This document shows, piece by piece, positions 3,001 to 37,600 of a DNA stretch of 64,000 bases. This DNA is from Lingula anatina (Eukaryota > Animalia > Brachiopoda). The notes under the pieces are model-generated. The model did not search any database and had not been told where the DNA came from. It saw only the letters and a program-made list of their open reading frames with translations. The translations under genes were made by a program, and so were the position numbers. How positions within the stretch are numbered: the stretch's first letter is position 1; each line of letters starts with the position of its first letter. The stretch spans positions 25,922,401 to 25,986,400 of the forward strand of contig CM120641.1 of the NCBI GenBank assembly GCA_051362555.1, read 5' to 3'.

Positions 3001-4902
3001 GTGATGTAATATGGTAATGACTCGATCTTTTCAATGGGCAAAAATTATTAAACTTTCAGATACATAATTCTATAATCAGAAAAATTATATTTTTATATAG
3101 TACTGCACAGAATAGAACTATAGAGTAGCCTCCTTTTTAATTCTGTTGCTAAAACTCAGTATAAATGTTCTAAGTTGAAGAAATCATGCCTGTAAAAATC
3201 ACAATTTTTTCCTCCATTGAAAAGACCAAGTAATTACTGGACTTGTGTAACACTCTTTTAATTGCCCCAACTGCCAAGTACATCAATGATGATGCAATGT
3301 CCAGGAATACACCTCACTTATACTTAATATCATATCACATCATATCATATCATATCAAGTACATGACCATAGAAGTGTTGGCTTTAATAAAGACATTCTG
3401 GTGACATATGTTTTACCCATGCTTTGCAATAAAATTATTTAATTACAATTTTCTGAATAAACAAAACATACATCAATGACAAAAGAGCTTAATCTGATAC
3501 CTCAATGGGGAACAATATCCAGCATGTTTTATCAAATATATATACTTTTGCTTTTATTTATATTCAAGTTTGTCAGACCAAGTTACACAGTGCAGAGTCA
3601 CATTTTTTTGTTTCCTATGTGAAGTTAGCCTAGGCCATGATTAAATAAACTGAAGTATATACTTGTTGTTAGTCTTTCACAAAAATAGAGCAGCTGATAC
3701 TTAAAAAATAAGAAGAAGAACTGCAATCAAATAACATATATATTTTCAGGATTTTTAAAAATCTTTTTCATGAAAAAAAAAATTGAAATGGTAAAAACTA
3801 TGGTGTTGTTGGGCTTCTGTAATTGGCACTGAACAATAGTACATTATTGACAAATAAATACTTATAATAATTTAAGAATCAAATTCAACACATGATATCA
3901 AATAAACTTTCTTCTAATATTTTTGTCTAAAAATACACCTTCCTTCAACAAGAAAATGTACAGAGCAGTCTGTGCACATGCTCAGGTTAGACTTCATAGG
4001 TCTTCTTTCCACTTCAATTCCCAAAGGAACGGTAACCAGATTTGCTTCAGTTGCGTAAAACATGATTGTCACAAATGATTTCCCACAATTCAAGACTATC
4101 CTTCACAATTTCATTTCCCTTGATCTATCATCTCCCCTTCTCCTTGCTATCTCATCTCCTTTTATATAAACCACTGCCATTTGCACATGCTTTAAACGGA
4201 AGATGCATTGCAATATCAACCATTCTGAGCCATTTTTACTATCCTTGAGTAAATGGGTGCGATTCCAGATAATGCCATTTTGGGGAACAGTATATGAGCA
4301 TACAATAACACTGTGGGCAAACAGTCATAAAACCTTAATACTTACCTCACAACGAAAGCTAATTTGCATCATCGGGGATTGAGAATCTATATTTAAAGTC
4401 AGTTAAAGGTTAAAATGTAAAATTAATTTTGACAGTGCAGCAATGGATTGTGGTTACAATAAGGATGTTGGCAAATATCCAATTTTTTTTCTTTAAACTA
4501 ATGGGAAACTAAGTTAATATACAGGAATAAAAAATCTACATTAACATGCAAAATCGTTGTATAGAAATAAGAGCACACTGAGCAAATACAATAAAAAAAA
4601 AAAACCATTTCTTCCTTAACACATTATTTATGAGATTTTAAATTTAATGAAGAAATGAAGAGCTGGGGATATTTCCCTTTTCCAAAAATTAATAATCATG
4701 TCTATGATATATTGATAGCTTACTTACTGAATTTAAAAATCTGAAATTATATTTTACAAAATATCCTGTGATTTTTTTTTGCTTAGAAAGAAATTCTGAC
4801 AAAATAATTTATCCAGGCACGAATCAAATTAAAATGAAAAGGTTAAATATCAAATAAAAAAGGCTACATTTCAGTTACCTATGATGACGTGGAAGAAAAA
4901 AA

Positions 4903-14460: not shown

Positions 14461-15001
14461 CACAGCTCCCATTTTGTCTATTAAAAAAGGTATTTTTCTA
14501 TATATTCACAGCTGTGATGCACAAAATTCCAGGTGTGGCATTACTTTTTCATGGTGCACCAACATTGCAATATTTTTTACTTTTTCACTTTATATGATTG
14601 CAGTACAGAAGCCTGAACCTCTTCTTCAGGATTAGGAAACTTATAAATGCTGTTGAATTTTGCATGCAGCTCATAATATTCTGAATGTTGTTAAAGGTTC
14701 TAGTATTGGTGCCCTCGTGAAAGCCATCTGCACAATACTTAAAAGGTTGGAGAAAATGATATGTGCCATGTCAGTAAACTTGCATTTAATGTTTAATGAT
14801 ATTTTTTGTGAAGATCAAAGATGAAACAAAGTACATAACAAACCAGGAAGATTCCTATAAGAGAGTCCACATTTATTGGTTCTGTGCTTTATATTTTTAT
14901 AAACTTTTGAGCCAGTGGTAAACGTATGACAGCAATTTAAACAAGCCTATAGCTTAATAAAGATGAATGAAACAATTACTTGATGTGTCTGTTGTCCTAA
15001 A

Positions 15002-15333
15002 AGGGATAATAACTCTTCGTTTCGGCCAAAAAATGAATTTTCCTGGAGTAAGCAACAATTTTCCCATACTTACCAATGGTTAATGAATCCATTTTTACAT
15101 TCAAAGTCAGTCCCTGGTTTTTTTCTAAAAAGTTTGGTTTTTTGTTAAAATCTCTTAAGAGATTTTAACAGAGTATAGCCATAAATGGAGGTCACGTGGT
15201 CTAAAGACAAGCTCAGATATCAGAATAATAGCTATAACTGCCGTTTTTGTGGTAAAACAATATATATTTCTATGAGTTATTCTCAATGTTTTTATTGTGA
15301 AATATAGATCTCATACGAAGAGTTATTATCCCT
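15002..15333. mobile_element. Non-autonomous DNA transposon (MITE), Kolobok-like termini
   Basis: Terminal inverted repeats AGGGATAATAACTCTTCGT / ACGAAGAGTTATTATCCCT, flanked by TAAA (left) and TTAA (right); no ORF. Confidence 0.6.
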
Positions 15334-15639
15334 TTAAAGGTTTTTAGAAAGTTTCCTCTATTGCAATAGGTGCAGTGTTTTATGAAGTGCCCTTACCAAT
15401 TAACAGATACAGTTATTCCTGTGCATTCCATTTAGTAATTTCAAGCAAATATTTGTCTCTGTTACTTGACATGTTCAGGTATGTAGTACATGTATTATAT
15501 ACATGTACCCCTTTTATTAAAATACTCCTTTAACTTGAAAGAAAAGCAGTAATAACATCAGTAATTTTGTCTGTTTTCTGAGTACCAAATGTAAACATTT
15601 TACACAAATCTCCCCCCCCCCTCCATGATTTTCAAAACA

Positions 15640-18600
15640 TTAATCTTCAGATTCTTCATCTTTTTCATCAAATATGTTGGGATCTTCTGCCAGTTTTTCC
15701 AGTTCAGTCCTCAATTCCTCAACTGCTAGATGAAGTCTTCCTTTCTCGGACTCCTCGCTTATTTCCAGCCAGTCATGGCACTGCTTCAAGATCATTTGGC
15801 ATTGTAGATAAAAATGTCTACGTATGACAGTTTCTGAACCTGGAAAGTAATGTGGTTCTTTTTTTTTACACAAAATACTCAGATATTTTATCAAAATTTT
15901 AAATAACACTTAAATTACCAAAGGCCTACTTATGTGTTCATGTCAGAATTTTCTTTAAAAGGCAAGTGAATCTGGGTAAACTAACACCAATATTTTATGA
16001 CTGCAACAGTATGCATGTTCAATATAAAATTAAAAAAGTAATAATCTGCTGTTTCAATGAATGGTATGATCAATAAAGTTGGGAGAGAACATGAAATACT
16101 GTTATTGCAAGGATATTAACTATGACAGTTCCAAAATTACAATACATACTATTAGATCTACCGTTTATTATTACATTTAGCTTCAAGAAGAAACAAATGT
16201 AATCAAAAGGAAAGTGAAAAAATATATATTCAAATTTCTCTACTTATTGTTTATGCTGAAGATTTGCATAAAGGGTACATTCAAGAACCTGTTTCATTTA
16301 CATGTTAAAGTTGAAAACTGGTTTTTAGCAAAGACTTAAGAATTTTAGCCAAGTTGCAATAATCCAATGTAGACTGTGTACTAACTTTTTTTGTCTTTTT
16401 TGATTTTTTAACTAAACCCTACAAAATTGTTTGCACAGACAATATTTTTATTCTAAGTGGAGATAAAAGCTCTTTTTTAAGAGTTGAAAGTTCATCAACT
16501 ACATGTATTGTGGACCAACCACTTGTGAAATGCTTTTACTGAAAGACAAATATGAGTGCAAAGTTGACTTTGCAGTTCATTATATGCTTTCAGCAGTTTA
16601 AGTTAAACCCCAAAACTACACTTTTTATGAAACGGGCCCAGGGACTGTCAAATATGATAAAATTCACTTTGTGTATCAGATGTGACCCTTACCTGGGGGA
16701 GGTTTTCTCAGCTGTCCCAGCATAGCATGGCGTATGGTGTAGAGTCGTATCTTACTGTTGTACTGAGCACTACGGGACTAAAAAAGGACAATTAAACATT
16801 TAGATTACTTCAATATTTTTCTTATGAGCATGTTTTCCTGCTACCTGATCATCATTAAAAATAATTCAAAAGGTGGCCATTGCTGACTCTGTTGAGGGGT
16901 TGCTTGAGAAGGTTGAGAAGTGGAAGATCGGGATGGAGAAGAACGGACTTAAAGTGAACATGGGTAAGACGAAGGTGCTGATGTCAGGCCATAATCTTGA
17001 TGTTCTGAAGAAGTCAGGGAAGGTTCCATGTGGAGTATGTCTGGCTGGCACGGGCAAAAACTGCATCTTTTGTGGTGGTTGTTCCCACTGGATCCATAAG
17101 AAATGCAGTGGCATATCAGGACCGCTATGGGAGGATCCAGAGAACCGTTGTCCACGCTGTTTGGGTACCGCAAGACCAATAGACGGCAGGTTGATAACAG
17201 AAGTGGAACTGGGTGGCGAGAAACTGGAAGTTGTGCCACAGTTCTGTTACCTTGGTGAGATGATTTCTGCTGGTGGAGGTTGTGACCTCGCTGCGATCAC
17301 TCGCTGCAAATGTGCCTGGGGCAAGTTTCATCAACTTTTACCACTCCTCACAAATCGTCACTTACCACTGCTCTCAAGGGGGTGAGGTACTCTGCAGATG
17401 TGGGCTGCCACCGGTAACACTATTCAACGACTGCGCCGTAATGACCGAGCCATGATCAGATGGATCTGCAATGGCAAGCTAAAAGACGAGGTTAGCTCTG
17501 ATTCTCTGCTCCTGAAGTTGGGTCTGCAGGACATTGAGGAAGTGCTGCGCCGCAGCAGACTCCGATGGTTTGGGCATATAGAGAGAAGCGATGGCTGGAT
17601 TAACCGAGTGAGAGAAGTTGAAGTAGTGGAGGACAGAAAGAGGCCTGGCAGACCAAAGTTAGCCTGGAAGGACGTGGTGAGAAGAGACAGGGAAGCGCTT
17701 GGTCTAGTCGGCGAGGACCCTCAGGATAGATCAAGTTGGAGAGGAAGACTGCGTGTCAGACTGGCCCCACCCTCTGTTGAGGATTAATTCCAGCCAGTAT
17801 AAAATAAATCCAGATGATGATGATGATGATGATGAAAAGGCAATCAAATTTTGCTAAATTATCTTTGACAATTTTATGAAAATGTTTCACTTCATAAGTA
17901 ATATTTTCCCAACCAAAGAACCACAAAATTTTAAGTTAAAGAGAAATACACTCACTGCCTGCATTTTCATGAACAACAGCACTGAAAAAGTCTACTCTAA
18001 GAAAATATTCAACCAATGATTTATATTATTCATACTAATGTATCCTAAAATAATACCTCTCCTTCTTCAGTCCCTCTTATGCCATCATAACCAGGTTCAT
18101 TAAACATAGGATCTCCAATCAAGATCATCCCTTGTATGGAAACCAGTACCTAAGATAATAACAACTTCTTAGTGATATTTTCAGTTTATTTACATGAGTT
18201 TTTCTTTAAACATTTTTCCTTGGTATTTCATTGGACTGTCACTGATTCACTTCAGATTTAAAAAGACTTAAATCTTTGGTCCTAATGTTGTGACCAACTT
18301 TCACTCTAAAATTTTAAACAGACACATGGTTAAAGACCACATTCAGAGTCACACATCATACTAGCTGGGTCACTCCAACTCTGTAAGGGATTCCCGCTAA
18401 AGTGCAATCAGTGGAATCAGCTTAACTGTCTGACATGCCTCCTCAAGCTGCTAGGAGGTAATAAACTATTGTGCTGATTAAGCGTATTCCACCGATTTCA
18501 CTTTAGCAAGAATCCTCTACAGAGTTGGACTGAACCAGCTAGTACGGGTGAATCTGAATTCGCTCTAAGATATAGTTCCATGTTATTTATCCCCTTATCA

Positions 18601-21600
18601 TAAGTTACCTGGTACAATGATGAGGTCTTGGGGTTCCACTTCTCACTGGCGTCACCCCCGTGCCATGTTCCCAGCAGACTCAAGCACACCTTGCCATCCG
18701 CATAGAGGTTGGGATTGAACCTGTGTGACAAAAGATGCTCAGAGTATTTTTAAAATGTTCTTATTGTCAAAATCATAGTTTAACAATATCATTTACTATT
18801 AACACATATCAAATGTGTTGAAGCTATGTTTTTTGGCCTTTTTGATGCAAAAATTAAATTGAAACTCCCGACAAAAAGTGATGTTCACAGATGTAAGAAA
18901 ATTATAGAAAATACTAATGTTAAACCAAACATTTAAAGGCACATATTTTTTCAGTAATTTTTGTACATGTATGAAAATAAACTTAGTGACTGTAAACCAC
19001 AAAACTGACAAAAACCAAAATCAGAAGAAGAAAATGTAACATTCATTAGGAAAGTTTTGATGTCATTGGCAAGGTAAATCTTTTGCTTATTTTCAAATTA
19101 AATTATTAAAAAAGGACTTCAGCTAAACTTAGTGCTAATGCAGGCTAGCTGATATTTCCCCACAGAACTGACCTGACAGTGCCATTCCCTGTTGTCACCA
19201 GTTTGACCAGAGGTGGTATATGTGGGTAGTTGGTGGGGAAGTAGATGTCAAACACAAAGCAGCCTCGACTGTATGGCGTATCAGCAGGACCTGTGATCAC
19301 AGCACGTACTATGTCCATCTGATTCTCATCCTAGAAAAAAAAATTCATTTCCGATCCAGTTGATTCCAATCAAGAGTTTATATCTTAATATAAATTAAGT
19401 CAATAAAATATAAATAGAAAAAGAAATTGTTATAAAATGTACATTAGAATTGAAAGTTTGCGCAAATCTTGCGATGAGAACCAGTACAATTGTAGAATAT
19501 CTTGTGGCTTTTAACCTTTAAAACAAAAAAAAAAAAAACAAAACAAAAAAAAAAAAAAAAAAATTACCCAGTATAGACAAAATATGATCAAATTTAACAA
19601 TGCAAAATTCCTTTTCCATTTGTATCGACCTAGAATTTATTTTCAATTTGTATTACGTAATCTGTAGTTCTGGTCATCAACAGATTAATAGATATGCACT
19701 AAGGGCCATTATAGTGACATAAATAATACCTGTCTTGCAAAAATGGCAGCATTCAAGTGTACAGGCAAGTCTTTTTGTAATTGTTTGATTTCTTTCATAA
19801 GAGCCTTCCACTTCTGTGACCTGGAGAAAAATATTTCCATACATTTTTAAGAGTGTATTTTATGGAGATGTTTTAAGGCATATTCATAATGTGTTGAAAT
19901 TAAGGTCTTTTCACATCAAGCATTTATTTTAGTGTTCCAGCTGTAGCGTTCAGTTTTAAGAGGTCCTACATGTATCCTGCAATTACACATTATGTATCTT
20001 GAATGTGTTAACTTTACTTTGTGGAAGAGCAAGGCAACCTTAGGAAGTGGGGGTTTGCCTTTCTACTTCTTAAGCTTTTATTTTTATTCACAGAATGTAT
20101 TAATTTCAAATATTTGTTATTCAAATCTCAGCTATAATAACATGCTTTTCAGTCTTAAAATATACAAAGTTCACAAAACGATGTCACTAAATGCATTTTA
20201 CAACTCACCGAGGATCATGAGACTGGCCTGCACTAGTTCTAAAGCTATGACTCTCCTGGAATTTCCAATGACCATTATATTTGTTTAAAATTATTTATTA
20301 CACAGCAATGTTCAATTCCATACATCATAATCCTATACTCTTTAAAAAATCAGTCCAACACTTCAAAATATTTTCAGGGTATGAATATGGTATATCTGTG
20401 GTTTAAGACAAATGAAACGGATAAACTGACATTATGCTAAGAAAATTTTGTTTCAACTCTTAAGATCCATTATAAAGAGGATTCTAAATCTGGAGGAAAT
20501 GAATATTATTAAAGGTCCATTATTTTTACCCTCAAGTTACCTGTATGTCTGCTGTTCCATACTTTAAATCGACCATCCTGTTGTGGTATTCTTCTTCAAT
20601 ACTGGGTATGTCTAGAGGAGCTAAAATGGTGTCCCAAGCTCTTTTTTGGTCTTCTGCTCTACCCTCCACCTCTTGGACTTGTATTTCTCTCAGTTTGTCA
20701 ATCTATTGAGTATGAAAGCAATCTGAATTTCTTTTAGTTCTTCATGCTTTCATGTTTTACTTCTTCATTTTAAGTGTTACATACTATCATTTCATACCAT
20801 GATAAACGTATATATAATGATGAACTGTTGAAAAGCCAATCCTGCTGCACTGGAGGATGAAGGTATCAAGAAAGGGACAAGAAAACATGTCTCTGTGGAC
20901 CTTCAGTGTCCTTGATGCTTTTTTAGAAAATTGAAGCTCAGGCACACTCTTGATACTCCTGGATATCAAAAGAGCACTGACATAGGAAGAAATCATATTC
21001 CACCAAAGCCTAACAAATTGATAAAAAAATTAATTCACAGATAGCTCTTAATACCTGTGTTAAAAGTTCACCAAACTCCTCCACCATTTGATCATCACCA
21101 ACTCCTTTCTCGCTAAGGACTGTGTACGTCTTGGCCCATGCAGTCGGGGAGTAGTCAGGATCCATAGCCAGGCTGTGAACAAAACCTTCTGTTTTGAAGG
21201 TTTCCTCCTTTGCTATCCTCAGCAATACTTGGCAGACATCTGACAGAAGCTGACGTGGATTGAATGAATACCTGCATATGAAACATTCATTCAAATAAAA
21301 AATATTCAATGACATATAACAAATTTTCCCTATTCACATGTATGCATGCTTTACAGACTTGGCAATGTTTGTAACATAAAAACCCATGCTACATGTAGAA
21401 ATCTGTTGTTTTACAGCAAAATGCTTGAATTTTGTTTTACATATGACATGCTCTTTATTTAACTGCTGAGGAAAAACTGGACCACATCTATATGCTTACC
21501 ATAGAGACAGACTTGAAATATTGTGGCTTAAATCTTAAACAATTTTTTCAATATGTTACTGTACATGGACTATACTAAGATCCTATTTAAGCACTTACTT

Positions 21601-24600
21601 ATCCATGTCTTTCACTTTAAACTCAACAGACTTGCTCCCACAAAGAGCTTCAATAAAACCTATAAACTAAAATAAAAAACAGCATAATACCTTGAAAATA
21701 CATGTAGAACATTAAATAACTAAGAACACAGCCTGGACAAAAAAAAAAAAAAAATTCTAGAAATTAAACTTTTTTTCGATGAGGGCCTGAGACAAGACAG
21801 TAGATTTATGCAAAATGTTTCACATAATACATTTCTAAACACTGTTAGTGTAAAAAGGTTGCTGAAAGGAGAAATTCTATACTGCTTACTGCATTAGCAG
21901 CTCTCTGTGCCATAGGTTTCTGGGTAAAACATCTGGCCACTTCCTCCGATTGACTCAGCATGGTGATAAGGCCCAAAGTTTGCTTTGCCTAAAATAAAAT
22001 ACAATGACCATATGATATACACATTGACATCAACTAGCCCAATAAGAAACTGTTACAAAATTAGAATTTGAACACCACTGCAGAATTACAGAACTGGATA
22101 TTAATTTTTCTATCTTTAATATAGAAATGGTTTTAAATGCACTGCATTAAGTTGAAAATAATCTCTTGTTTCCTTTTTGTTTGTTTTTTTTTTCACATTC
22201 CGTTCAATTTCATCAACTGACTTACTTTTACTACATCTACAGCAAATCTAGTTCAAAATAGCCAAGGTGAGTGAATCCATGATAAGAAAATATAAGAAGG
22301 CAAGAGAATATGAGAAAGTGTCCCATGAAACCTCTGTTAGCAAGAGGACCTACCATTGTCATAAATCCCCTAGCTACACCCTCCTCTGATTTTAAAAACT
22401 TTTCTTTCTCTTGTTGCTGTTCCCAACTAAGTTGATCCCAAGTAGATTCTGTAAAATACACACGGTTGACACATAGAGACAGACTTCATCATTATTTTAT
22501 AGGAAATAAATAGTTGCTGTTTCCATAGCAGTCGATTGATCCTCCTTAGGAAGTTAAAAGTTAAAGTATATAAAATATAAGTTAATGTCATAAAATTACA
22601 ATATTCAAGCTGATAAATTAAAACTTCAAAATAATTTCAATTATGTAAAAAAAAAAAGTGGGAAGGGGGATAATTCTGATTACCATCCTCTTTGGCAATT
22701 TGTAGTTTTCTGACATTGGCCAACCTTGCTAAACTGTCATGTAGCTGGTACAACAGTGTATCCAGTGTGGCTCCTAGAAAAGCCTGGAATTACACACACA
22801 TATGGAAACTTTAAACAAATTGTTACCTCTAAAAGAATGTTAAATGGAGTACACTATCATACCTAACACACTGCCTCACATACCCTGCTGCCATGTCTAT
22901 CATATTTAGCACTAATATTTAGCAAGTACATAAGCATATTGTATTAACCAATGAACATTTTAATACTGTATTGTCAATAAATTGAAAATGATGTCAACAT
23001 ATAAGAGCATTTTATAATGGATATTTATACATAAACTCCTAATAATTACGTAGGCAAGTAAATGATCCATCATAAATGTGAGGCTATGAAATGTGCAATA
23101 AGGTGTGCATGTAAAATTGTAGTGGTATAGTATGTGTGAGCCATACCTGAAACTCTTCAGTTCCACACATTTTCAACACAGATATCCTGCTGTCTCTACG
23201 GTTCCACAAGAATTCCATAAGTTTACCAATATCAGCCCTAACAAAAAAGGAAAAAAATACAATGTTACCATATTAAGAAAAAAAGCACAAAATAGAATAA
23301 AATATTTAAGGTATGACAAAAGATAATAAATAAAATTTAAAAATATGTTTTTCATGGAACAACAGTGTATATTTTATTGAAATGGAACAACAGAGCAGTA
23401 TCTTGGATTGGAGTTGAATGTCTTTCTTTCAGTGCCTGTCAATATGCTCCCATATGTGTGCACAGTGTGTTAATGCCTGTGCGCGCATGCATGATTTTTT
23501 CCAACATCTCACCTTGCACTGTATTTATCAAAGTCCTCCTTGTCTACATCCAGTCCTTCAACCACATCCACACTAACATAGGTGTGGAGTAGGGCAGGCC
23601 CTAGGTGATGTTGTACTGCCTCACACGCACACACCATTAACGCCATCTCTGACATCACTTCATTGCCCCATCCTACAGATCTAGCCAGTAAACATAAATA
23701 TAATATAATTACGATAAAAACCTGAAAATTTCATCACCAAAAAAATTAATAAAAATTTTTAAATGTGTGAATCCAACATGGCAATATTAGGTGACAAACA
23801 TTTCAAAATCATTGAGAGACACATTTTCAAAATGAGAAATAATTACACTGGCATTACATTTCTGAAAAAATTTTCATGACTGACTAAATTTTTAAGCTTT
23901 TACTGTAAGCAGTAATCACAGTCAACCTTTGAAATATTGTTAGTGCTACCTCTGATACCATTTCATTGCACCACTCTACAAGAGATCCATACAGATCTAA
24001 GTATAGAATAAAAATACCTTTAAAAAATTACCCAAGTGACCATGTAGCAAGGTTTTAGATAAATGAAATCTTGGAATATCTGTGCGATCACATTTATTAA
24101 ACAAGTGAACCTTGTAAGTGGTTCTACAATTGTCTGTCAAGGTACACCCTTCCTAAATGCCACTAAAATAGGCTACACTGACACAAACTCTGTCACATTG
24201 TCAAGGAAGGACCCCCAATATGTCGCTTCACTCATTATAACAAAATACCTATACCTGCTTCCCCTGCTAGAAGTCTGCATAAAGGCTGCCAGCGCCCCCA
24301 CTATCTTACTGGCTGGAATGGGACCAGGAACAAGATCTGGTCTTTGTAACAGGTTCACACAGCAGTCCACAAATGGTGCCAGCTAAAACAAGAAATTGAA
24401 GACATATTTTACAGATAAAGGACTATCATTATGAATTTTGAACATTGCTATATAGGTAATGAAGGGTTATAACACGAAACATAAGTGTACATTTTGAAAA
24501 ACAATTTCATTCGTTCTAAGGTTCATAATTCAAGCAAGAGATAAGCAACTGTCTTTTTTTTTAATATATCAATTTTTTTCTCTATTATCAAAGACACAAA

Positions 24601-26742
24601 ATTTATTTTTCATATGGTTGGTTATTACTGTCATTGGTAAAGAGAAAAATATTACAGTATGAAAGCAATGTCAATTTTCAATTAGGCCAATCTTTATATA
24701 CAAACATGTCAAAATTCTTTGTACACAAAAAAATGATGCCTGCAATATGAAAAATTCATCAGGTAGACAAAGATAGAACTACTCATAGTTATATACTGTA
24801 GACCTCATGTGCAGTGTAGTCAATGCCCATGTACCCTGCTATAAATACCTGCAGTCCTATGAGAACTTTGGGTTTCAGCACTACAACTTGTCTGGCCACA
24901 AAAGAGAACCATATGGCCATGTCCTTCACTATGTACTCAGGGAGCTGAGCAAACACCCGTTTTTCAAGCATGGTAACTTCTGCTTTATTTCCCTTTGGAA
25001 AAAAAGAGATAATGCAAGAATTAATGTAGAACAGCGAGTAAAGGAAATAAATCAATCTCAATAGATTCAAATGCAGAGTAGAGCAGTATGTTCTAATCTG
25101 AGGAGGATTAAGATTTCCTTGGTCAATGAAAAAGACTCTTTCACCTTCTCTCTACATCTTTGTAGCAACAGGTCAAGCCACATTGCCTGAGTTATGTAGA
25201 ATTCGGAGGTTTTCCTTATGAATTCTGGGTCCATAATGCAAGAGTCCCATCGCCAGCAATACACCTAAAATGGTATAAAAATAGTGATGTGGAAAACTTT
25301 ATCTCATGAAATTAAAGAAGAAGGATATGGGTGTGGCAGTGTGGAAGACAGTTTGAAAATATTCAATATTCACTACAATAATGTTTGCAAAGGTAAGTAT
25401 GTATGATATTATATATCCCAATCTTTCTTTGGTTATACCTGATAAAAGTATGCTTACTGCTATAAATTGATTAAAATCCAGTTGCGTATTCTATCATTTC
25501 AAAATTTAACTGAATCTAAGAATTAAAAGTAACTGATTTAAGAATGACACATGGTTTACAAGCTTATATGTTCAATATCATTTTTCTTACTGCTTCTTGT
25601 GCTTGAAGTTGTTCTTCCAAAGGTGTCCCTTGTTTGGCAGCTCTAGCTCTCTGAATCTGACTGTAAGAATAAAGAATGGAGAAATGCTTCATCAGCATAT
25701 ACAGCAAGACGTGTGCCTCAAAACTCAGTCATTGCTAATTTTAGTAATAGATCCAAAGTTCCTCTCATCAACATTTTCATAAATTTTGAAAAAATCTTAT
25801 TTCTTAAAATTGACTCCAGAACTCGCTTAAGTTTTGATATTTAGAGCACAAAAATAGGAATATAATTCTTTCCACAAAATACAGAAAGTGTTGAAACATG
25901 AAATTACATACTGAATATACTCACCCTAAAAGTTTGATGAAATGTGTCAGAGATGGAAGGCTTCCAATGTTCATTGCTCTTTGGGTCAAATGGAAAACTT
26001 CCGTCATAAAGTTAAATTGTTCTACACTACTCTCACATTTATTCTTGGTGTCATCATCATCCAGAGTTTTCTCAGAAACTATTTTTTAAGAAAAAGAATG
26101 ACATCATGATGAATTAATATGACAACTTATCACCATGACTATCAAAACAGTTTTCAGATTTAAATAATTTATTTGATAACTGACCCATTTCAGGGTTATC
26201 ATCTGATACTGTATCAACAATTTTCCCATGAACATATTAAGTTGTGTACTTTTTAAACACCTAGATTTATAAGGCAGGTTATGATATTCAAAAAATTCCT
26301 AATAACTTGCTACACTACTTTTTCTTATGGAGAAAGTTCCATAGCAAATATCCCAGGGCTGTAGTTATTATAACTATTATAGGACATTTAGAATTAATTT
26401 TCCCTATTTTTCTGTTTGGTCCACTCACCTATTTGACCTCCAGCCAAGCAGGTCTCATAATCATAGTTTAATAAGCATGCAGCAGAGTGCGAGTAGCCGG
26501 AATCAATTTTTTCCAGCTTGGATATGTCTTTGAAAAATGGCACACAAAACTCTAAAAGGACTGCACAGAGATTCTGCATAAAGCCTAAAAAAGTAGCAAA
26601 GATACAGATACATTTTTTATTATTTCAGCGAAAAATTTCCTGACAAAAAAATGATGGTGTGAAAAGGCGTTCATACTTTATAACATATAACAAAACTACT
26701 AAGTATGTGAATATATTTAGAAAAAGTTGTTTTATGTTACAC

Positions 26743-26841
<99 letters not shown>

Positions 26842-26845
26842 TCAT

Positions 26846-26902
<57 letters not shown>

Positions 26903-28910
26903 ACGTGACAATGCATTAGATATGACAGTGTATGACCCATTGCAGTAGTTGTGGCAAAGTGTTGATAGTGCCAGTATAGTGTAAAAGACAGTGTGCTGGT
27001 TGTGACAATACACTGTGTATATATACCATCAGTACAGCTGGCAGAACCATCTGTGTTATCTTGGTAAGGATTTGAAGAGAGGCGCATCTCATTCATGTTT
27101 ATCACTGTGGCTATCCACTCCAGTGCTACATCACGGCAGCTCTTCATCATCTTCTTCAATCCACAGTAAACTGCACTTTGGCATTTGTAGAGGACAGCTT
27201 GAATGTTGCCCTGTATATAAAACAAAGCATTCATGTGTAGGCACAACTACTTAAGTCTAAGTCTATTAAATTTATTGTCCTTTAAATCTCCTCCAGAGTT
27301 GAATCAATTTTAAGAAGTATTCTGTTCATTTCAATTGTTCCATCCAACTTTTACTAACAAGTAAATGTTATCCTCATAGAATTTACCTGACAGAAACTCA
27401 TAAATAACACTAAAACATAAAATGTATATATCTTACGAAAAGCCTCAGAAGAGAAATGTGAATCTCAAACTTAATTTGGCTTTATCGTTTCACAACAAAT
27501 TATCCTTCACAAAATTTCCAAAAAAATTCTAAGAAAATTCCTGAGTACCTGTACTCTTTGTATATCATCTGCAAAAGGTTTTGGAAATCTAGGCAAACTG
27601 GTGAACATCTGGGCCTGAACTGCCTTCAGATTTAATCCATCTTTCACATCAGTTGGAATGATGCTCACTGACAGCAGTGGACCAAATACAGACTCCCTCT
27701 CAAAGTAGGCTCCCTAGTACAGAGTCAGCACATGTTAAATCATGTGAAGTATAATGAACCATATAATTTTTAATTTACAAAATATACAAAAAAAAAAAAA
27801 AAAAAAAAAACTAATGAAATTATATTTTTTCTCTTGGTATAAATAATATACTTTTTGTAAAACATCAATTAATACAATAAATATCCTACTGTGTAATGTC
27901 CTTCTAATGAAACTCAACTGATACCTTTAGCCAAAGAAATACTTAATAAAAACATATACACTATTATCAAAATTTGTAAATAGCTTGTCCTTACCAAATG
28001 TTCTTTGCCAGCCTTTATTTCTTCCTTTAGTCTAACACTCAATACTGGCACCAGCAGAGGCTACAAATCAGAATTAGATGTGAAAGTTTAGTTATTAACT
28101 CTGAAGATAACTTTATTCTTATATTTTACATTAATATACATATAACCGCAAAGCAATTATTGCAGATTCAAAATACACATCTTTTGTAAGAACCCTACCT
28201 GATTCATCAAGATCTCCACTCCATTGAGTAGAGCTGCATTTTGTAATATGGCTTCATCAAGCCTGAAAATACAGAGACACAATGTATCTGGATCATTGTA
28301 AGGTGTTCAAATCAGCAGTAACGACCATGACATCTATTAAAAATATCAAATCTTCATTAAAAAATAAAACTGCCAAGGACCAGTAAGTATAGAAAAAATT
28401 TACATCAAAATACACCAAAACTACAGTAACTTTGGTACATAACAACAAAAATTAAACAAATCTCTTCAATTTCACCTGAAAAAAAAATGGATTACATCAG
28501 AGAGCAACATTTCCTTGTAACTCAATCAATTAATATATTTTAAAAATTGATTAAATGCAGTGCTTAAAATTAATGCATAAGTATAAATACCATACCTCTT
28601 GCTGTTTTTGATTTGCAGCCCACTGACTCTCAGCACCTGAATTATGGCCTTTCTTCCCTCTGCTGTCTGCACTGCCTGTGTTAGGATCAGTTCTAGTAGA
28701 GCTGGGGGCACTGCCACCCCGCCACACCCAGACACCCCCTGCAGGAACTGTGTTATCACTGTGGAGATACTGTCGCTTGTTGTTACATCAGACCAAAAGT
28801 CATCATCATCTGAAAAATCTGAAAGACAGAAAAAGAGCAATTCATATAAACTTCTTTTATGTAGACATCTTCCTTTTTGTTCCCTTATTACCCTTTTTAT
28901 TTGACGCACA

Positions 28911-28980
<70 letters not shown>

Positions 28981-31900
28981 TTTTTATTAAAAAATGTACT
29001 AGGTAGCTGCAAACATCTATACCAACACACAACTTACCAATTTCTAACTCCTTTAAAATAGCACAAGCTAGCCCTGTCTTCACTGCCTCCAGTATGAATT
29101 TTGCCAAGGATTCAGGTCTCTGAACCTCAAAACACCTGTCAAAGCATTGCACACAAAGCCCCACCTTGTCCCTGTGTTCACGTCTGACCCTCTTCTGGAC
29201 CACCTCACAAACCACTGCACTAAGCTCAGCCTCTGAACTGGGGATGTTCTTTAAATACAGTTTTGAGAGACTTTTTGGGGTGCTTTTTTCGCCCTGCAGC
29301 TCCTAAATATGATTAAATGAAGGAATATATGAAATATTGAATGACTGTATTAGGGAAGGAAGGAATAGTATCACACGATATTCTATCAAAATTCATGAAG
29401 GAAATTTATTTGAATCAAATACTTGCAATTGAAGTCTGAACATATCTTCTAAAATTAAATACAGGGTTGCATTATTCTATAATGTAAATGACAAATTGCA
29501 TAATTGGAAAAAAGTGAATAGCATGTGATATTCATACCACTGGAATGTCAAGGACATCAGACAGCAGTAGTGGAACCAGAGTTTCATTTGGCAGTTCTTC
29601 AACACTTTTACTTTCACTTATTTCTTCCACTTTCTGTGCAATAACTTTAGATTGTGTTTTTTTCTCAGGTGACTGTGACAGGAGACAGGTATGTTCTTCA
29701 CTTTCAGGCTCTATTATAGTTTCTGACATGTCAGGACTGTTCCCCTGAGCTATGGGTGTGACAAGTGTTTGAGCTGAGGAAACAGCATGCTGATTTTCTT
29801 TAGCAGTATCATTTGCTGACACTGAAGACACCATAAAACCAGTGTCTGTTTTATCAGTTCCTGTATCTTGTTCATTTTTGGATAGGGTATGTGATAAATG
29901 CGACGTCAATTCTTGACCTGTAAAAGATGTAACCATAATATCTGCATTTACACTTAAATCTTGAACATGCTCAAGAACATTTTGCTCATCTTCTAAGTGC
30001 CCCTGATGTAAATAATGCTGTTCTTCATTAACATCTTTTTTCTCTTGTTTCTGCAGTAAAATTTGGTGACACTTCAGTTAATGGTTTGTTCAATTTTGAA
30101 AGTCAAGCATTCCTTAGTTCATCAGCTGATAGCACTATAAAGAAATAAAAAATTGGGTATAAAGAATAGTTGCATATGATTTTTCACTTTTAAACTTAAT
30201 TTTCAAATTTTGCTAACTTATATTCATGTGCATCTATGCAGAGTGCAAGTGTGCACGAAGTTTTGTAATAGAAATATCTGATAGACTTGAAGAACGATAT
30301 ATTTCATTTTGGTGTGCCAGTAAAAAGAATGAGTGTACTATTACTAACCCCTCCCATGTTGCTGTTGCTTCTTTTGTTTGACTTTTGTTTTTGGTACTGC
30401 TAGCGCACCGGGGCTCCTCACTGAACCAGTCATTTCCGCAGGGGAAGTATCCTGCTGATCCTCTTTAGCAGTATGGGCATTTGTCACTGTGGATATTAGA
30501 GGTTCTGTGTCTGTTTTACCAACAACTGCGGCATCTTCACTGTCTGCTCGATCGTTGTCACAATCATCATAATTTTGTTTCAGTGCTGCTGGACTCTTAT
30601 GTGATGACTCCTGGTTTTCATGTTTCCTCTTTCTCACATTTTTCTGTGAAATGTCACTTTTTCCATCTTTCTGTGGTAATTGTGATGGCTCTTGAGGGGA
30701 AGACCTGGTCAATTTTGATAGTCGCGCATTTCTCAACTCTGCAGCTGACGGTGCTGTAAGAAGATAAAATCATGAGAAGTATTCAACTAATACCTTTGTT
30801 TAAGTTTTTTTTTTCTATTTTAATGAGGCACAAAAAAAAATTCTGCTCTAAATAATGGAGCTTATTAAATTAATCATGATCTGAAACTACATGGTTGTTA
30901 TCACCAGAATAATTTAAAATCATCAGACATCCAGATGAAATATATAAAATATAATTTTGTACATATGTATTATCAAAAGGAACTTCTGATTACTACAGAT
31001 GAAATTATTAAGTTGTCCTACTTCCAGGTGGATTTGGTGTCTTTCTTTTCTTACCTCTCCCTAACTGTTCTTGTCTTTTCCGGGTCATTCCATACCCTAT
31101 GGCTGCCAGCAAGAGCAAGAAGACCACAAGACCTACTTCACGAAAACCAAATTTCCATGGTGGAGTTTCAACCACTGGCACATGCCTGTCATCATGTACT
31201 TGGCCTTTTCTACTTTCAACCACTTTCAGAAGAAGTTCCTTCAATTTCTACAAAATTAAATAGATTTCATAGATAATAAATGATTTTTAAATAACTGATG
31301 TAAAGTTATTAAGGACGTATGTAAATACAGAAATAAATTGAATTGAATTGAATTGAATTGTTAAAACAGATGTCTGGTAAATACCTCCTATCAGTAGGCA
31401 TGCAAGACATCAGAATCCCTTAAGCTGAATGCAATTTAGTGAAAAACCTCTCAGAGATGGGTCGATACTGCTAGATCGATCTAGGTACACCGGAAAAGGG
31501 TCTAAGACTTGACCCAGATGCCCAGCTGAGTGATTAGACCCCACCCCACAATATTATCCTCCTCTGCTCTTGAGCCACTGTTTAAGACTGGGTTCCCATC
31601 CTTATATCGATCTAACAGGATCGGTCCATCTCCACGGGGTCCCTCGATAAATTGCTTTCAGCCTAAGCGGATTCGACGTCTGGGATAGCCACTAAAGCGG
31701 CTAAACGATAGTTAATTACCCCCTATCAGCCTCAGCAGGTGTGACAGTCATTTAAGCTGCCCAAGTTAATTGCAATTAAGTGAGAATCCCCTCGGAGATA
31801 GTTCGATCCAAAGTTAGTACAATACTCTCTGGGAATGGTCTCTAAGAAGCCAGTGTGGGCAGGGTAGTTGCATAAGAGCAGACATGCTGATTGAGTGAGT

Positions 31901-34222
31901 TCCTACAGTGACCTATACTTTAATTTTGTATACTATTTTAGATGTCCCTGATATCAGAGGGTAATTAAAAGGTTACAGTACAATGTCAATTGATAATTAA
32001 TTGTAATTTAAATATATAAGAAAAATAGAGGACTTCTCGTACAAAAATCATGAAATACCCTACAGAATATGACAAATGAAAGTTCTGTAGACCTTATCTA
32101 ATGGGATCCATGTAGTTACATATAGAATCTGCGATTAAGGAGTTACATGGCTGCTTTACCCATGGAATGCATGATGACACTAAAAATTTAGTTAAATGGG
32201 ACTTAGATGGGATTTGTTAACTATAAGGGTGCTTGGGACCTTATGGTTCATGAGAAGTAATGTTTACATTAACTCTCAAACCTTAACAAATGCCAGTACA
32301 GAGCACTATTACATGTATACTTGTAACACTAACAACTGCATACATGTATAAAGTTAACATTTTTAAAACAGAAATGGACATTGTTTATATACATTACCTC
32401 CTGTGATAGCCTTTCAGTAACATCCCAGACAGCTTCATCACTTTCCTCCAGGCTAAAGTAGCCATCTCTATTTAGATCATGAACTATTTTTAAGTCACTT
32501 ATCTCCTAAAAGAGAAAGAAGTGATTAGAACATTTACTTTTACTGGCACTTTCTGGCACTGGTGCAAAAATTAAAATATAAGAAGAGAAAAGAAATGAAA
32601 AAATTAGGCAACAAAGTATTAGGCTATAGTTACTCATAATCATTTACTTAATTCTTTTAGGACCCTCATACATAGATATACCTGCACGTCCACGAACTGG
32701 GTAACAGTAGTGGGTGATCATCTTTAAAAGTCTGTCAAAATATGCCTGTGCGTTGGATTTCAATGGGGGGGTTTTCACGTGAAAGGGGATAGATTTGTCT
32801 TATTACAACAAACAATTTCATGTTTCCAAACATTGCTGTGTATTTAAAATTTTTTTATTCTTACCCAAAAATGACACTAAAACAGAGCTCAAATCTGGGA
32901 CACAGCCATACCAGTCCGTTTTGCAGCTTTACGTTATGGAAAAGAAAGCTCTCACAATAGTATTTTCATGTTTTTTTGGTCATCTCAGGGATCATTTACG
33001 GCACACACACTAGAGAAAACAAAAATTGCTCTTGGTCGCAAATTTTAATTTAAGAAAACAGGTTGTTATGTGTTACTATCATTTCCGTTTTCAACTTCAG
33101 TACAAAGTATCATCTCCCGAAGACATGAACTAAACAAATCGTTTCGTTTCGGGATGTCCCACATTAAAGCATTGTTTACCTTAAGTGTCATTTTCAGCTA
33201 AGAATTAAAAAAAAGTTTAGAATAGTCACAGCAATTTTTAGAAACACAAAATTATTTTTTTAATAATAAGACAAATCCATCCCCTTTTACATGAACCCAG
33301 CACCACTGTAATCCAACACATAAGAATATTTTGACAGTCTTTCAAAGATGTTGTTACCCAGTATTGTGGACGATATATATATATATATGCATGATGATGA
33401 GAGAGTAGCACCTGTTCTGAGAGTTTTAGCTCCTTAACCAATTCTTCAAATGACACTGTTACACCTTGCTGTTTCTCTGTAGCCTCGCTGCAATCAGAAA
33501 AATATGATTCATAGTGTCAAATATTGTACAGAAACCGTAAGAAAAAACACCCATAAATAAAAGGTACGTGTCAATGGAGATTTAATCTTCATACACATCA
33601 AAGGTGAATTTTTGCTGAAATTGTAGAAATTCATTGTCACTGTAGAGATGTCATCACACCATTTTTAAAAATCAATAGATATTTGCAAGAAAAATTGATT
33701 TGAAGTCCATTCTAGTACATACCAAATACATATAAAAGATCATATAAACATACAATTTGCAATCTTTAAAATGGAACAGAGGGGGGGGGGGGGGGGGGCA
33801 AATCATGGCCTATAAACATGTTAATTAAAATTAACAGATTTTAACAAAAGGAAGTATCCATCTAATGATACATTGATACATTCAAAATTGTTATGGTCTT
33901 AATTTTTTGTAGCAATCATGAGCTAACTCACTTAATTAAGTTATTGGGATCTTATCATGTTACAAAACCCTCAGTTTGTATACATTGTGCGTCATGAAAC
34001 TTTAGCAAAAAGGTTCATTTTAAAACCATGGCGGCCTTGAACGGAGAAAGCACCAGCATATAATGGCAATGATTTATAAAGCGAAAGTTATCCTCCTTTC
34101 ACATTTACTGTACATGTATTTCATTAAAAAAATTACGTTTAAAATGGTTTTACAGGTCCTTATACTTACCATGAAAAATACACTACCAAGAAAAATGTCA
34201 TTAAATGCACGAGATTCAGCAT
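15640..34222 (-). CDS. Chimeric type-I membrane protein: signal peptide, EF-hand, TM, VBM-like motif, Ufd2/UBE4 core and BIRC6/UBE2Z-like UBC (E2) domain; 33 exons, ~1579 aa
   Basis: Exons 34170-34222, 33412-33487, 32398-32505, 31055-31247, 30349-30753, 29538-29917 (acceptor inferred), 29038-29302, 28596-28818, 28199-28262, 27995-28060, 27549-27713, 27027-27210, 26429-26584, 25925-26078, 25591-25660, 25145-25264, 24849-24992, 24255-24382, 23513-23680, 23147-23237, 22684-22783, 22354-22448, 21890-21988, 21599-21666, 21055-21271, 20541-20702, 20209-20255, 19730-19820, 19173-19330, 18609-18720, 18057-18149, 16693-16777, 15640-15839; total 4740 nt, all GT-AG and phase-matched. Ufd2-core hallmarks: [32 protein letters not shown]...[54 protein letters not shown]...[35 protein letters not shown] hallmarks: [66 protein letters not shown]. 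Confidence 0.82.
16874..17834 (+). mobile_element. 5'-truncated RTE-clade-like LINE fragment, antisense in intron 31 of the Ufd2-UBC gene
   Basis: Two consecutive ORFs (16873-17385, 17398-17787) encode the 3' end of an RT ([43 protein letters not shown]) with an inserted Cys/His finger. (GAT)7 tail at 17813-17834; AAAAGG target-site duplication at 16868-16873 and 17835-17840; GC-richer than the host intron. Confidence 0.88.
26746..26899. repeat. Compound (GA)n(GT)n microsatellite
   Basis: GA run to ~26790, then two GT runs separated by GCGCGCATTCATGA; intronic. Confidence 0.95.
28910..28977. repeat. (AAAT)n microsatellite
   Basis: About 17 units in intron 7 of the Ufd2-UBC gene; causes the YLFI repeat in ORF 28526-29215. 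Confidence 0.95.
29918..30134 (-). pseudogene. Disabled 5' part of a duplicated exon (second VBM-like copy)
   Basis: Phase-1 acceptor ttatag|TG at 30134 reads [14 protein letters not shown] (TGA at 30103-30105 where exon 5 has CGA). It is then one base out of frame with the downstream KQEKKDV...MVTSF frame. Confidence 0.7.
31394..31693. mobile_element. Degenerate foldback element (MITE-like) in intron 3 of the Ufd2-UBC gene
   Basis: Left arm GAATCCCTTAAGCTGAATGCAATTTA...GAGATGGGTCGATACTGCTAGATCGAT pairs imperfectly with right arm ATCGATCTAACAGGATCGGTCCATCTC...TAAATTGCTTTCAGCCTAAGCGGATTC. Confidence 0.55.
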
Positions 34223-34616: not shown

Positions 34617-37600
34617 ATGGCGTCGAAACGAGGCGGCTTAGAGGGTTTGGATTTGAGTTCTGATGAAATCAAACGTTTAACAAATGCCCTGAAAAATGAA
34701 GAGTTTCGAAAGCTATTTGCAGAATATGCAGAGGAAATATCTGACCCGGAAAACCGCAAACGGTATGAAGAGGAGATCGCGCAACTGGAGTCGGAAAGAG
34801 GCATGGACATCACGTTTGTAAACCCAGACCCTGGATACGTAATAAAAACAACCGTTAATGGTGAGCAAAAGGCCTTCATAAATATCTGTAAGAACGAGCA
34901 CATTGATAAGCCACAAATGACGAAAGAGCTTGGGCCTAATGGAAAGACGAGAGTGGGTTGGCAGATTCCACACAGTTTCTCTCCACCGCGCGATGACTTG
35001 GACAAGGGAGGACAGAAATGCAAAGTTTACGATGTCGTTTTCAACCCTGACGCCTACAGAATGGCAGAGTCTAATGCGCGATTCAAGAAGATGATCCAAG
35101 ACACTGCATTCGATGGCATTGAAAGGCAGTTTGATGTGAAACTGGATCGAAAGAATTTGAAATTTCCGAAGATGAAATTTAAAGGCGTTCCCGTGGCGAC
35201 TGTGATTCGAAAACGAAAGGATGAAGGGCCTAATGAGCAAGACAAACCAGCGACAAAAGTTGAAGGTGATGCAGATGATGATGACCCATTGAGTAAATTA
35301 CCATACCCATATGATAACAAAACAACAGAAGAAAAGAGGATAGTCAGAGAAGAAGAACTGGCAAAACAAAATGCTAAAAAGGCCGAAACTGAAGCAAAGA
35401 CCAAAGTTACAGCAACATCAACTAAAGATCCAGATGCTGCAGAAATTCCTGTATACCACATCATCCATCGCTCAGACATGGACTTGGGAGACTATCGTAA
35501 TGCTCCAGATGCTAAGACCAGCACACGACCCAAGGAATTGGCAGTTGTAGTAACACTACCTCTTTTGAAATCGGCAGCCAATATTGATTTAGAGATATTT
35601 GAGAAAAGGCTGCTTTTAGAATCGGAGACTCCAGCTAAGTATAAGCTGGACCTAAACCTGCCTTATCCGGTGGATGAAACCAAAGGATCAGCCAAATTTG
35701 ATAAGAACAAGCGCCAGCTTATTATCACTCTACCTGTTTTGCCAGCTGAGACACCAAAACTGCCTTCATTTATTGATGATAAAGAAGAAAACCCGCCTCT
35801 GCAGAATGGAACTTTGTCCAATAGTGCTGCAGATGGCAAACCACTGGTTGAAGTGATATCGTCTTTAGAAAATGAAAATCCATCAGCCACTGCCACTGCC
35901 CCAGTGAGCTCAACAAATCACTCAGTGAAACTACAAATTCCATACAGCCTTCCTGAGTATGACATATTCCAAGATGAAACCAATGTCTCCGTCATTATAA
36001 ATGTGAGGAGAGTTGACAAGGCCAGCTGTAATGCCACTTTCACTCAGGCAGGATGCTCGCTGCAGATGACATCATTAGGAAGCGGAGGATTCCCGAACCA
36101 CTACAGTATTTGCCTCAGTTTTCCCGATAAACACTGCCTGGCCAAGGACATGTGCACTGTTGATATTGGAGAGACCAATGTTGTCGTCCTCTTGAAGAAA
36201 AATGAAGATTGTCAAAGTCAGTGGGAAAGCTATTCAGTTGGCCTAAATGAAGACCATTTAGAGGTAGGTTTATATTACTGTAAAAGTGTATATGAAAGGA
36301 TTTAAAAAGATTTTCGTTTTAACTGAAACGGGTATTTTTTTCCTACCCTCTTTCCTTTATTTCTGTGGATTCTGTTGTGTTAGGGAATGTGGAAAAGAAG
36401 TTGCCATCTGTAACATAAAAAAATTATACAAAGGTAAGCGGAGGTTAAATATAATCAGTAACAGAAGTTTGTTTGCAACCAGGAGCAACAGTATTTTTAG
36501 GAAGTTTCTTGATATTTCTTCTGGAGGTTTGTAGGTTTTTAATTAAGAAGTAGGATTATTTACACATTTGACAATAACCTCATTTCAGGGGATTTTTCTG
36601 ACCCAATTATTCGATTATTCATGGGATTCCCCACATTATGAAGGCGTGCATGATTGCGATTGGTTTATTTATGAACCTTTAACATCCCCAATTGATAGTT
36701 TATATTGTAGATGTATGGTGGAATGAGAGAAGTTGTAACAGTGAGTACAGGCCAGCATTACTTTAATATTATAAGATAAGAAACATCACATAGTAATCCA
36801 AACTTGTCACCATGTTAATCTGAGTAGTTAATGTAATACATTTAGTCTGAGGTGGCCACAGTGTTATTTGTCAGTTGTCCACTGACAAGATTTATGGGAA
36901 TAGTATGAAAACATCAGAGTAGTCATCACAATGTTTCAACATTAGTTTGATAGGAATATTGCATCACTGGCATGATTATTTTATGAATTGCAAAATGATA
37001 TGGGCGAAATGTGTGCACAGATGCAGTGAGGTCAGTGAAGAGTGACATTGCAGTAGGTGTGACAGCTGATTGTGTAGATGACGCACCTTGGAGGATTTAT
37101 TGCATAGTGTCGCGGCACATCCTGGTTAAGTGCTTGTGAGATCTGATCAGCAAAACTAGGTGAGATTTGCAAAATAGGTTAAGATTCATTTTTAAATACT
37201 GGTAAATTGCTTCACTTGAAAGAGTGTGTTAAGCATTAAATTGTGAAAAGAGCTATTTTATTGATGAGAGAGAAATATAGTATTTTAAAGAAAATATTTC
37301 AGCTGGTAGAATATATGTCCCTAAATTTTTGTCGCTTGCACTTCTTGATATTTTTCTCAAAATTTTATTGAGTCAGAGTGTGCTAGAATTGGAAGGAAAG
37401 CGATTATGTTAATAAAAAGAAAACTAATACTGTTTGAAAAGACAGGACTGTTGGATGTCAGGGATTCATTTGAACTGATAACCTAGGCAATATTTTAACA
37501 ATGCCTGGACTTGTTTTAATTAAAGCTTGTTCCAATCAGTAGCAGAAACACATTGCTATTCAGCAGTGTGCGACATGTAAAGGTGAAAGATAATGAAAAA

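Follow-up and report, generated by a model that had tools for sequence, protein, structure and literature searches.

A Ufd2 core joined to a catalytic E2

What does a protein do that carries the helical core of the ubiquitin ligase Ufd2 and, at the place of the U-box, a ubiquitin-conjugating (UBC) domain of its own? Such a protein is encoded on the minus strand of a stretch of the genome of the brachiopod Lingula anatina (GCA_051362555.1, CM120641.1, positions 25,922,401-25,986,400 of the forward strand), a stretch of 64,000 nt that we call the window. We find that its gene is spliced and expressed, with one transcript linking Ufd2 core and UBC. Our gene model runs from 34222 to 15640 in 33 exons and encodes 1579 aa, with GT-AG introns and a terminal stop only. 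An earlier reading made from the sequence alone had traced 28 consecutive stop-free exons between 29917 and 15640; these stand as exons 6-33, with all internal introns GT-AG. The coding start that it placed at 29917 did not hold: the coding sequence starts at 34222, and the five further exons upstream of 29917 encode the N-terminal part of the protein. Exons 1-4 were modelled from the reading frame and the architecture of homologues, and the junction of exon 1 is predicted. The closest database protein, RefSeq LOC106153808 of Lingula anatina, is annotated as uncharacterised; its isoform X3 is 98.2% identical to our model from residue 133 onward. The RefSeq protein begins at the Met after the transmembrane (TM) helix and is probably about 132 aa too short.

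RNA reads cross the boundary between the two parts. We mapped four raw-read runs from three studies over positions 14801-21600, which hold the introns between exons 25 and 33. The joint 21055>20702, which leads from the final exon of the core to the first on the UBC side, is crossed by 42 reads summed over 4/4 runs, and the seven introns after 20702 are crossed, in order, by 14, 22, 43, 20, 18, 39 and 25 reads; each of the four runs crosses all eight introns. The series 21055>20702>20255>19820, predicted before any RNA was consulted, is seen in 4/4 runs. Exon 25 (21055-21270) contains the end of the Pfam family Ufd2P_core (profile 559-624 of 628) and reads join it onward, so the core-to-UBC junction is directly shown. 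The sequence-only reading had allowed for separate core and UBC transcripts or a U-box exon spliced after exon 25; instead, the reads join core to UBC, and exon 25 has no alternative among the joints listed for the four runs, two weaker joints not being displayed. In runs X1 and X2 the first mates over the exons lie on the plus strand, the pattern of minus-strand RNA in most stranded libraries.

The U-box is replaced at a domain boundary

Pfam analysis of the RefSeq protein (P0001) recovered Ufd2P_core at 553-1197 (E 1.2e-96, profile 1-627 of 628) and UQ_con at 1273-1408, the pair that had been anticipated; besides these it found only a weak UEV match, with no BIR domain and no U-box. Exon by exon, Ufd2P_core pieces appear in order (5/24 exon pieces, profile 40-624 of 628), followed by UQ_con. 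The last 1177 residues were modelled with AlphaFold2 from an alignment of 41 sequences (pLDDT 84.4, pTM 0.84), and the pTM value suggests a fixed arrangement of the core relative to the UBC. Residues 10-878 of the model align with yeast Ufd2 13-879 (Z 30.6, root-mean-square deviation (rmsd) 6.0, 776 aligned), and residues 895-1168 align with BIRC6 4494-4790 (Z 35.6, rmsd 1.9, 271 aligned). In the model the Ufd2 body runs to the end of the core and is followed by about 16 linker residues and then by a BIRC6 UBC with both extensions. Exon 26 (20541-20702), which had been read as a helix resembling the one before the BIRC6 UBC, corresponds to the BIRC6 N-terminal extension, and the structural match starts there. 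The exchange of the U-box is a clean one, made at the Ufd2 domain boundary.

Pfam also found no U-box in the fusion family members scanned. A profile of the U-box, made from 64 canonical proteins, had no match in the window translated in six frames (best E 2.2) or in 102 family members (best E 0.29). We rejected a hidden U-box exon, as the profile is empty in the window and the RNA reads lead from exon 25 into the UBC exons. In yeast, Ufd2 recognises K29 chains by means of N-terminal loops, attaches K48 branches and has a role with Cdc48 in endoplasmic reticulum (ER)-associated degradation, as described in passages of PMC5303827; at the level of the fold, the K29-chain-binding N-terminal region appears to be present in the fusion model. 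A core motif, EGLDVD, occurs in 58/102 fusion proteins versus 0/64 canonical Ufd2 proteins.

A BIRC6-type UBC with an intact catalytic site

The sequence-only reading described a complete NPNLY-type UBC with its catalytic Cys at codon 18684-18686; the codon is TGC and encodes Cys1429. It had typed the domain as BIRC6/UBE2Z, of which the BIRC6 half is borne out and the UBE2Z half is not: in phmmer searches against solved structures the UBC scores 247 bits with BIRC6, 146 with UBE2O and 118 with UBE2Z. Fold matches to UBE2O (Z 26.7) and UBE2Z (Z 23.2) also fall below that to BIRC6, and we rejected both as the type of this domain. Cys1429, Ser1431, Trp1436, Glu1443 and Met1462 are the equivalents of BIRC6 C4666, S4668, W4673, E4679 and L4698. 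According to passages of PMC12818219, UBE2O and BIRC6 keep ubiquitin closed without a RING, and BIRC6 requires the last four of these residues. Across 94 fusion members the catalytic Cys is kept in 94/94, and the closed-state columns hold Ser in 93, Trp in 82 (Phe or Tyr in 11), Glu in 74 and Met, Leu, Ile or Phe in 73. The column of BIRC6 Y4711 is mixed (Tyr 38, Phe 15), and we draw nothing from it.

The sequence-only reading had suggested that such a protein might be charged by UBA6. The UBA6 selectivity of BIRC6 has been tied to insertion loop 4649-4653 (PMC13623948, in part), which has a five-residue counterpart here. Passages of PMC12999496 map the main clash of BIRC6 with UBA1 to E4603 and E4604 and report that Drosophila BIRC6 takes either E1. 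The pair is Glu-Asn in the window protein, and among 27 animal-clade sequences E4603 is retained in 23 and E4604 in 5. Members of the family in algae and euglenozoans also bear on the matter. From these sequences, charging by both E1s would be at least as likely as UBA6 selectivity.

A widespread family apart from UBE4A and UBE4B

The architecture recurs across eukaryotes. Among the best 120 of 319 matches, 94 proteins carry both Pfam families and none of these has a U-box; 2 carry the core only and 24 a BIRC6-like UBC only. Named fusion members come from amphioxus, an annelid, molluscs, cnidarians (including Nematostella), green algae (including Volvox), a haptophyte and pelagophytes, and others from two amoebozoans and three euglenozoans. 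None of the fusions in these 120 bears the name of a vertebrate, insect, fungus or land plant, in a set where many entries are unnamed and which was not a search for absence. An ESM Atlas cluster named "Ufd2 core/UBC domain-containing" has 64 members with both families. The core-to-NPNLY spacing in fusion members is at least 148 aa, with a median of 162.

Trees were built separately for core and UBC. In an unrooted FastTree of cores, with 4 short fusion sequences left out, one branch of support 100 splits 98 fusion cores from 64 U-box cores, and a subset of 26 fusion and 22 U-box cores gives the same split under LG+G4 and under a mixture model. Forcing eight animal-clade sequences together with two UBE4B-like sequences was rejected (p-AU 1.3e-5), as was forcing them with two putative UBE4A-like sequences (p-AU 1.5e-47); an origin of the animal fusion members from animal UBE4B is rejected by this test. 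The aligned sequences place the fusion cores in a lineage apart from UBE4A, UBE4B and Ufd2. In the UBC tree, which includes no true BIRC6, separating the 94 fusion UBCs from 24 other BIRC6-like UBCs needs two changes, and the lone intruder, P0101, has a weak Ufd2P_core match above the cut-off. This divergent protein combines a UBC with a weak Ufd2 core and also has a SUMO/ubiquitin-like domain. The same proteins fall together whether the tree is built from cores or from UBCs. A single ancient origin appears likely from these trees; it is not proven, since the trees are unrooted and sampling started from fusion queries. Given the taxa that hold members, the family may date to the last eukaryotic common ancestor.

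Other BIRC6-like proteins appear in the same set. Many of P0097-P0120 are proteins of about 870-2060 aa that end in a BIRC6-like UBC, with no BIR domain or Ufd2 core listed; their hosts include a sponge, a hemichordate and molluscs, and some are annotated as BIRC6. It seems that the BIRC6-type UBC is a catalytic module able to move between proteins, and that further hybrids containing it have yet to be studied. A query with crinoid UBE4B returned no Lingula protein in the best 120 of 922 matches, an uninformative result; UBE4A and UBE4B are both present in most animals, including molluscs and annelids, in the part of Marin 2010 (PMC3087547) used here.

The sequence-only reading knew of no characterised protein with this architecture, and we found no published study of a Ufd2-UBC fusion in a search largely without subscription papers. 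Both Pfam families are named in passages of PMC6548493, for different proteins; the main text of PMC4327156 has no Ufd2, UBE4 or BIRC6, and its supplements may list domain architectures; the fusion architecture is absent from passages of these two papers and of PMC3087547. Fusion proteins carry only machine names, "UBC core domain-containing protein" in UniRef and "uncharacterized" in RefSeq. The family is apparently widespread in eukaryotes and unstudied, held in databases under automatic names.

Animal members have a predicted membrane anchor

We compared N-termini in the 22 animal sequences in which this region is complete, leaving out P0012, P0021, P0024, P0025, P0027 and the RefSeq protein. 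A signal-like segment is present in 22/22 and a TM helix in 21/22, and the two together occur in 0/75 other fusion proteins and 0/64 canonical Ufd2 proteins (139 controls). Animal members are thus predicted, from this sequence pattern, to be type I membrane proteins with the catalytic part in the cytosol. An EF-hand-like pattern is found in 18/27 animal-clade sequences, 0/75 other fusion proteins and 0/64 canonical Ufd2 proteins; it is missing in amphioxus and Owenia, and in two cnidarian members Pfam places an EF-hand below the cut-off. A pattern resembling the VBM consensus EhRRRRLxhh (given in a passage of PMC5389986) occurs in 11/22 animal sequences and in 17/64 canonical Ufd2 N-termini. 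Fusion members outside animals have no anchor; 11/75 have a UIM-like N-terminus by a pattern of our own, and one has a UBA, modules that point to ubiquitinated clients.

Relation to known ligases

The fusion protein shares with Ufd2, UBE4A and UBE4B the whole helical body (yeast 13-879), a full-length Ufd2P_core and a VBM-like N-terminal helix, but they carry a U-box, whereas it has its own catalytic E2, a core of separate lineage and, in animals, a membrane anchor. With BIRC6 (Apollon, Bruce) it shares the extended UBC with both extensions, the insertion loop, the catalytic Cys and the closed-state residues; unlike BIRC6, which has about 4860 aa, it has 1579, its substrate module is a Ufd2 body, and E4604 is Asn. 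UBE2O and UBE2Z have NPNLY-class UBCs, and UBE2O also a hybrid layout, but the scores given above set them apart and their N-terminal modules are different. An Atlas cluster resembling RNF123 (KPC1) combines TPR_RNF123 (60% of members) with Ufd2P_core (37%) and is a lead to a Ufd2 scaffold combined with a different catalytic end. RNF123 has a C-terminal RING and depends on a separate E2, whereas the fusion protein brings its own. The fusion protein lies outside both the UBE4 and the BIRC6 families. Like an E2/E3 hybrid, it sets a C-terminal catalytic UBC on a large N-terminal module with no RING, U-box or HECT, and by sequence and analogy it likely works as one.

A self-contained ligase and its alternatives

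We propose that the Ufd2 body and BIRC6-type E2 form a self-contained E2/E3(E4) ligase for p97-linked ER quality control, a reading to which we give a probability of roughly 55%; that the protein has E3-independent ligase activity of some kind is, on the same grounds of sequence and analogy, highly probable. A self-contained hybrid is the best reading because the residues for RING-independent activity are kept. Some E1 would charge Cys1429, as its conservation implies. By the biochemistry of BIRC6 and UBE2O, the UBC alone would hold ubiquitin closed and reactive through its Ser, Glu, Trp and crossover-helix residues, so that neither U-box nor RING would be needed. As in Ufd2, the helical body would bind an acceptor, probably a client that already carries ubiquitin, and present it to the active site, the outcome being single ubiquitin additions or branches. 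In animals the signal peptide and single TM helix would place the protein in the ER membrane as a type I protein with its catalytic part in the cytosol, and the VBM-like helix would recruit p97; members elsewhere would do without an anchor, some with UIM-like or UBA modules in its place. We link the protein to p97 and ER quality control because ubiquitin- and p97-binding modules recur in the family and the animal form has a type I anchor.

Several observations weigh against this proposal. What we say of activity, location and partners is drawn from sequence and analogy. Exons 1-4 of the model rest on frame and homologues, with RNA reads covering exons 25-33, and the five animal-clade sequences that we left out of the N-terminal count lack the anchor. 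The VBM-like helix of the window protein lacks two consensus arginines, and at the VBM site 10/22 animal sequences have a KREEWL-like helix (Arg/Glu/Trp), those named being all from molluscs. The core is 17-19% identical to that of yeast Ufd2, and a conserved core motif found in 35/64 canonical proteins is replaced in the fusion proteins (0/102), so they may bind something other than Ufd2 does. The closed-state residues are also kept in the 24 other BIRC6-like proteins and therefore mark a clade or a capacity and not a unique mechanism. Finally, UBE2O multi-monoubiquitinates and builds no chains (passages of PMC12818219).

The last point opens the better placed of the alternatives, that the protein resembles UBE2O as an E3-independent hybrid whose Ufd2 body is a receptor for unmodified clients, with multi-monoubiquitination as the product and no E4 or p97 role. 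The invariant family-specific core motif in place of the canonical one and the degenerate VBM-like helix fit this account as well, which we nevertheless consider unlikely: the Ufd2 body is retained in full, with the N-terminal region responsible for K29-chain binding in yeast (PMC5303827, in part), and UIM-like, UBA and VBM-like modules recur across the family.

Membrane-anchored E2s that serve ER RING ligases exist, and the protein could be such a tethered E2, needing a RING or U-box partner in trans, for instance an ER ligase, and using its Ufd2 body for positioning only. Its ligase activity is, after all, deduced; yet closed-state and safeguard residues of the BIRC6 type are kept and the nearest characterised UBC acts without an E3 (PMC12818219, in part), and we regard this arrangement as improbable. 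The chance that the fusion is an artefact of read-through or merged neighbouring genes is negligible, for although reads are shorter than the transcript and RNA joints cover exons 25-33, 42 reads span the core-to-UBC intron in 4/4 runs, 94 independent proteins have the same architecture with a core-to-NPNLY spacing from 148 aa (median 162), and both trees group the same proteins.

Beyond the self-contained ligase itself, a wider picture may be drawn, and taken whole it is a long shot: a third, possibly last-common-ancestor-age clan of E3-independent ligases, an E4 with its own E2, would have disappeared from yeast, flies, vertebrates and land plants; in animals it would be an ER protein that spans the membrane once and, through its luminal EF-hand, links calcium in the ER to p97-linked branching of ubiquitin in the cytosol.

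Features of the locus

Along the protein, the order is signal-like segment, EF-hand-like loop, TM helix, VBM-like helix, disordered linker, Ufd2 body and BIRC6-type UBC (Table 1). In the window, the long form of exon 6 (acceptor 30134) contains an in-frame TGA and 22 extra bases, lesions that may be polymorphism or assembly error. It starts with a near-duplicate of the start of exon 5, giving a second VBM-like helix. The short acceptor at 29917, the RefSeq X3 form, avoids both the TGA and the 22-base excess and leaves the frame open; the full protein can therefore still be encoded by the haplotype in the window.

Table 1. Positions in the window of the fusion gene and its parts
Feature	Position	Strand	Detail
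Entire coding span	15640..34222	-	Stop-free splice model, 33 exons, 1579 aa
Exon 1, predicted signal peptide	34170..34222	-	aa 1-18, hydrophobic N-terminus
EF-hand-like loop, predicted luminal	32443..32478	-	aa 53-64
Single predicted TM helix, basic residues after	31089..31151	-	aa 112-132; Kyte-Doolittle 2.05
VBM-like helix, candidate p97-binding motif	30710..30739	-	aa 149-158; partial consensus match
Exon 6, long form	29918..30134	-	RefSeq X1/X2 form; second VBM-like copy
Ufd2 helical body, N-terminal region and core	20655..29284	-	aa ~412-1280; Pfam Ufd2P_core aa 621-1265
EGLDVD, family-specific core motif	23542..23559	-	G, D, V, D invariant in 41 aligned sequences
Intron, last core exon to first UBC-side exon	20703..21054	-	42 joint reads, 4/4 runs
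BIRC6-type extended UBC, N- and C-terminal extensions	15670..20606	-	aa ~1297-1570
Insertion loop GNGTV, 5 residues	19175..19189	-	By alignment, BIRC6 4649-4653 (PMC13623948)
Active-site loop	18642..18686	-	Cys1429 (codon 18684-18686, TGC), Ser1431, Trp1436, Glu1443

A long open frame with PIH1 and PIH1_CS domains occupies 34617-36305 (+), and we take it to be DNAAF2/kintoun-like. This PIH1-domain gene starts near 34617, head to head with the fusion gene and about 400 bases from it, and so bounds the 5' end of the fusion gene; a shared promoter is possible. Inside intron 31, at 16849-17787 (+), a pair of adjoining open frames, which has a weak PHD-like match, looks to us like a decayed non-LTR retroelement remnant. 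Just beyond the 3' end of the gene lies a transcribed interspersed repeat (about 15000-15337), marked by a very high depth of RNA and numerous loose ends. Farther off lie an exon of an actin-family gene (Pfam Actin) at 9813-10196 (-), presumably Arp2-like, and, at 59574-60881 (+), an open frame of 435 aa that has NHL repeats and a stretch rich in His.

Significance

No E2/E3 hybrids other than UBE2O and BIRC6 are known according to a 2025 paper (passages of PMC12818219). If our proposal is true, the fusion family would make a third, with another scaffold as its base and members in animals, amoebozoans, euglenozoans and algae. It would amount to a natural experiment on Ufd2, in which a U-box and recruited E2 have been swapped for a self-activating E2, and it could reveal the function of the Ufd2 body when no U-box is attached, and whether a UBC of the BIRC6 type is able to form branched chains. 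The family also tests the new rules of E1 selectivity, because it has members in lineages thought to lack UBA6, and genetics is within reach because Volvox and Nematostella have members. The animal form suggests a membrane ubiquitin ligase that has gone unrecognised in cnidarians, molluscs, annelids, brachiopods and amphioxus.

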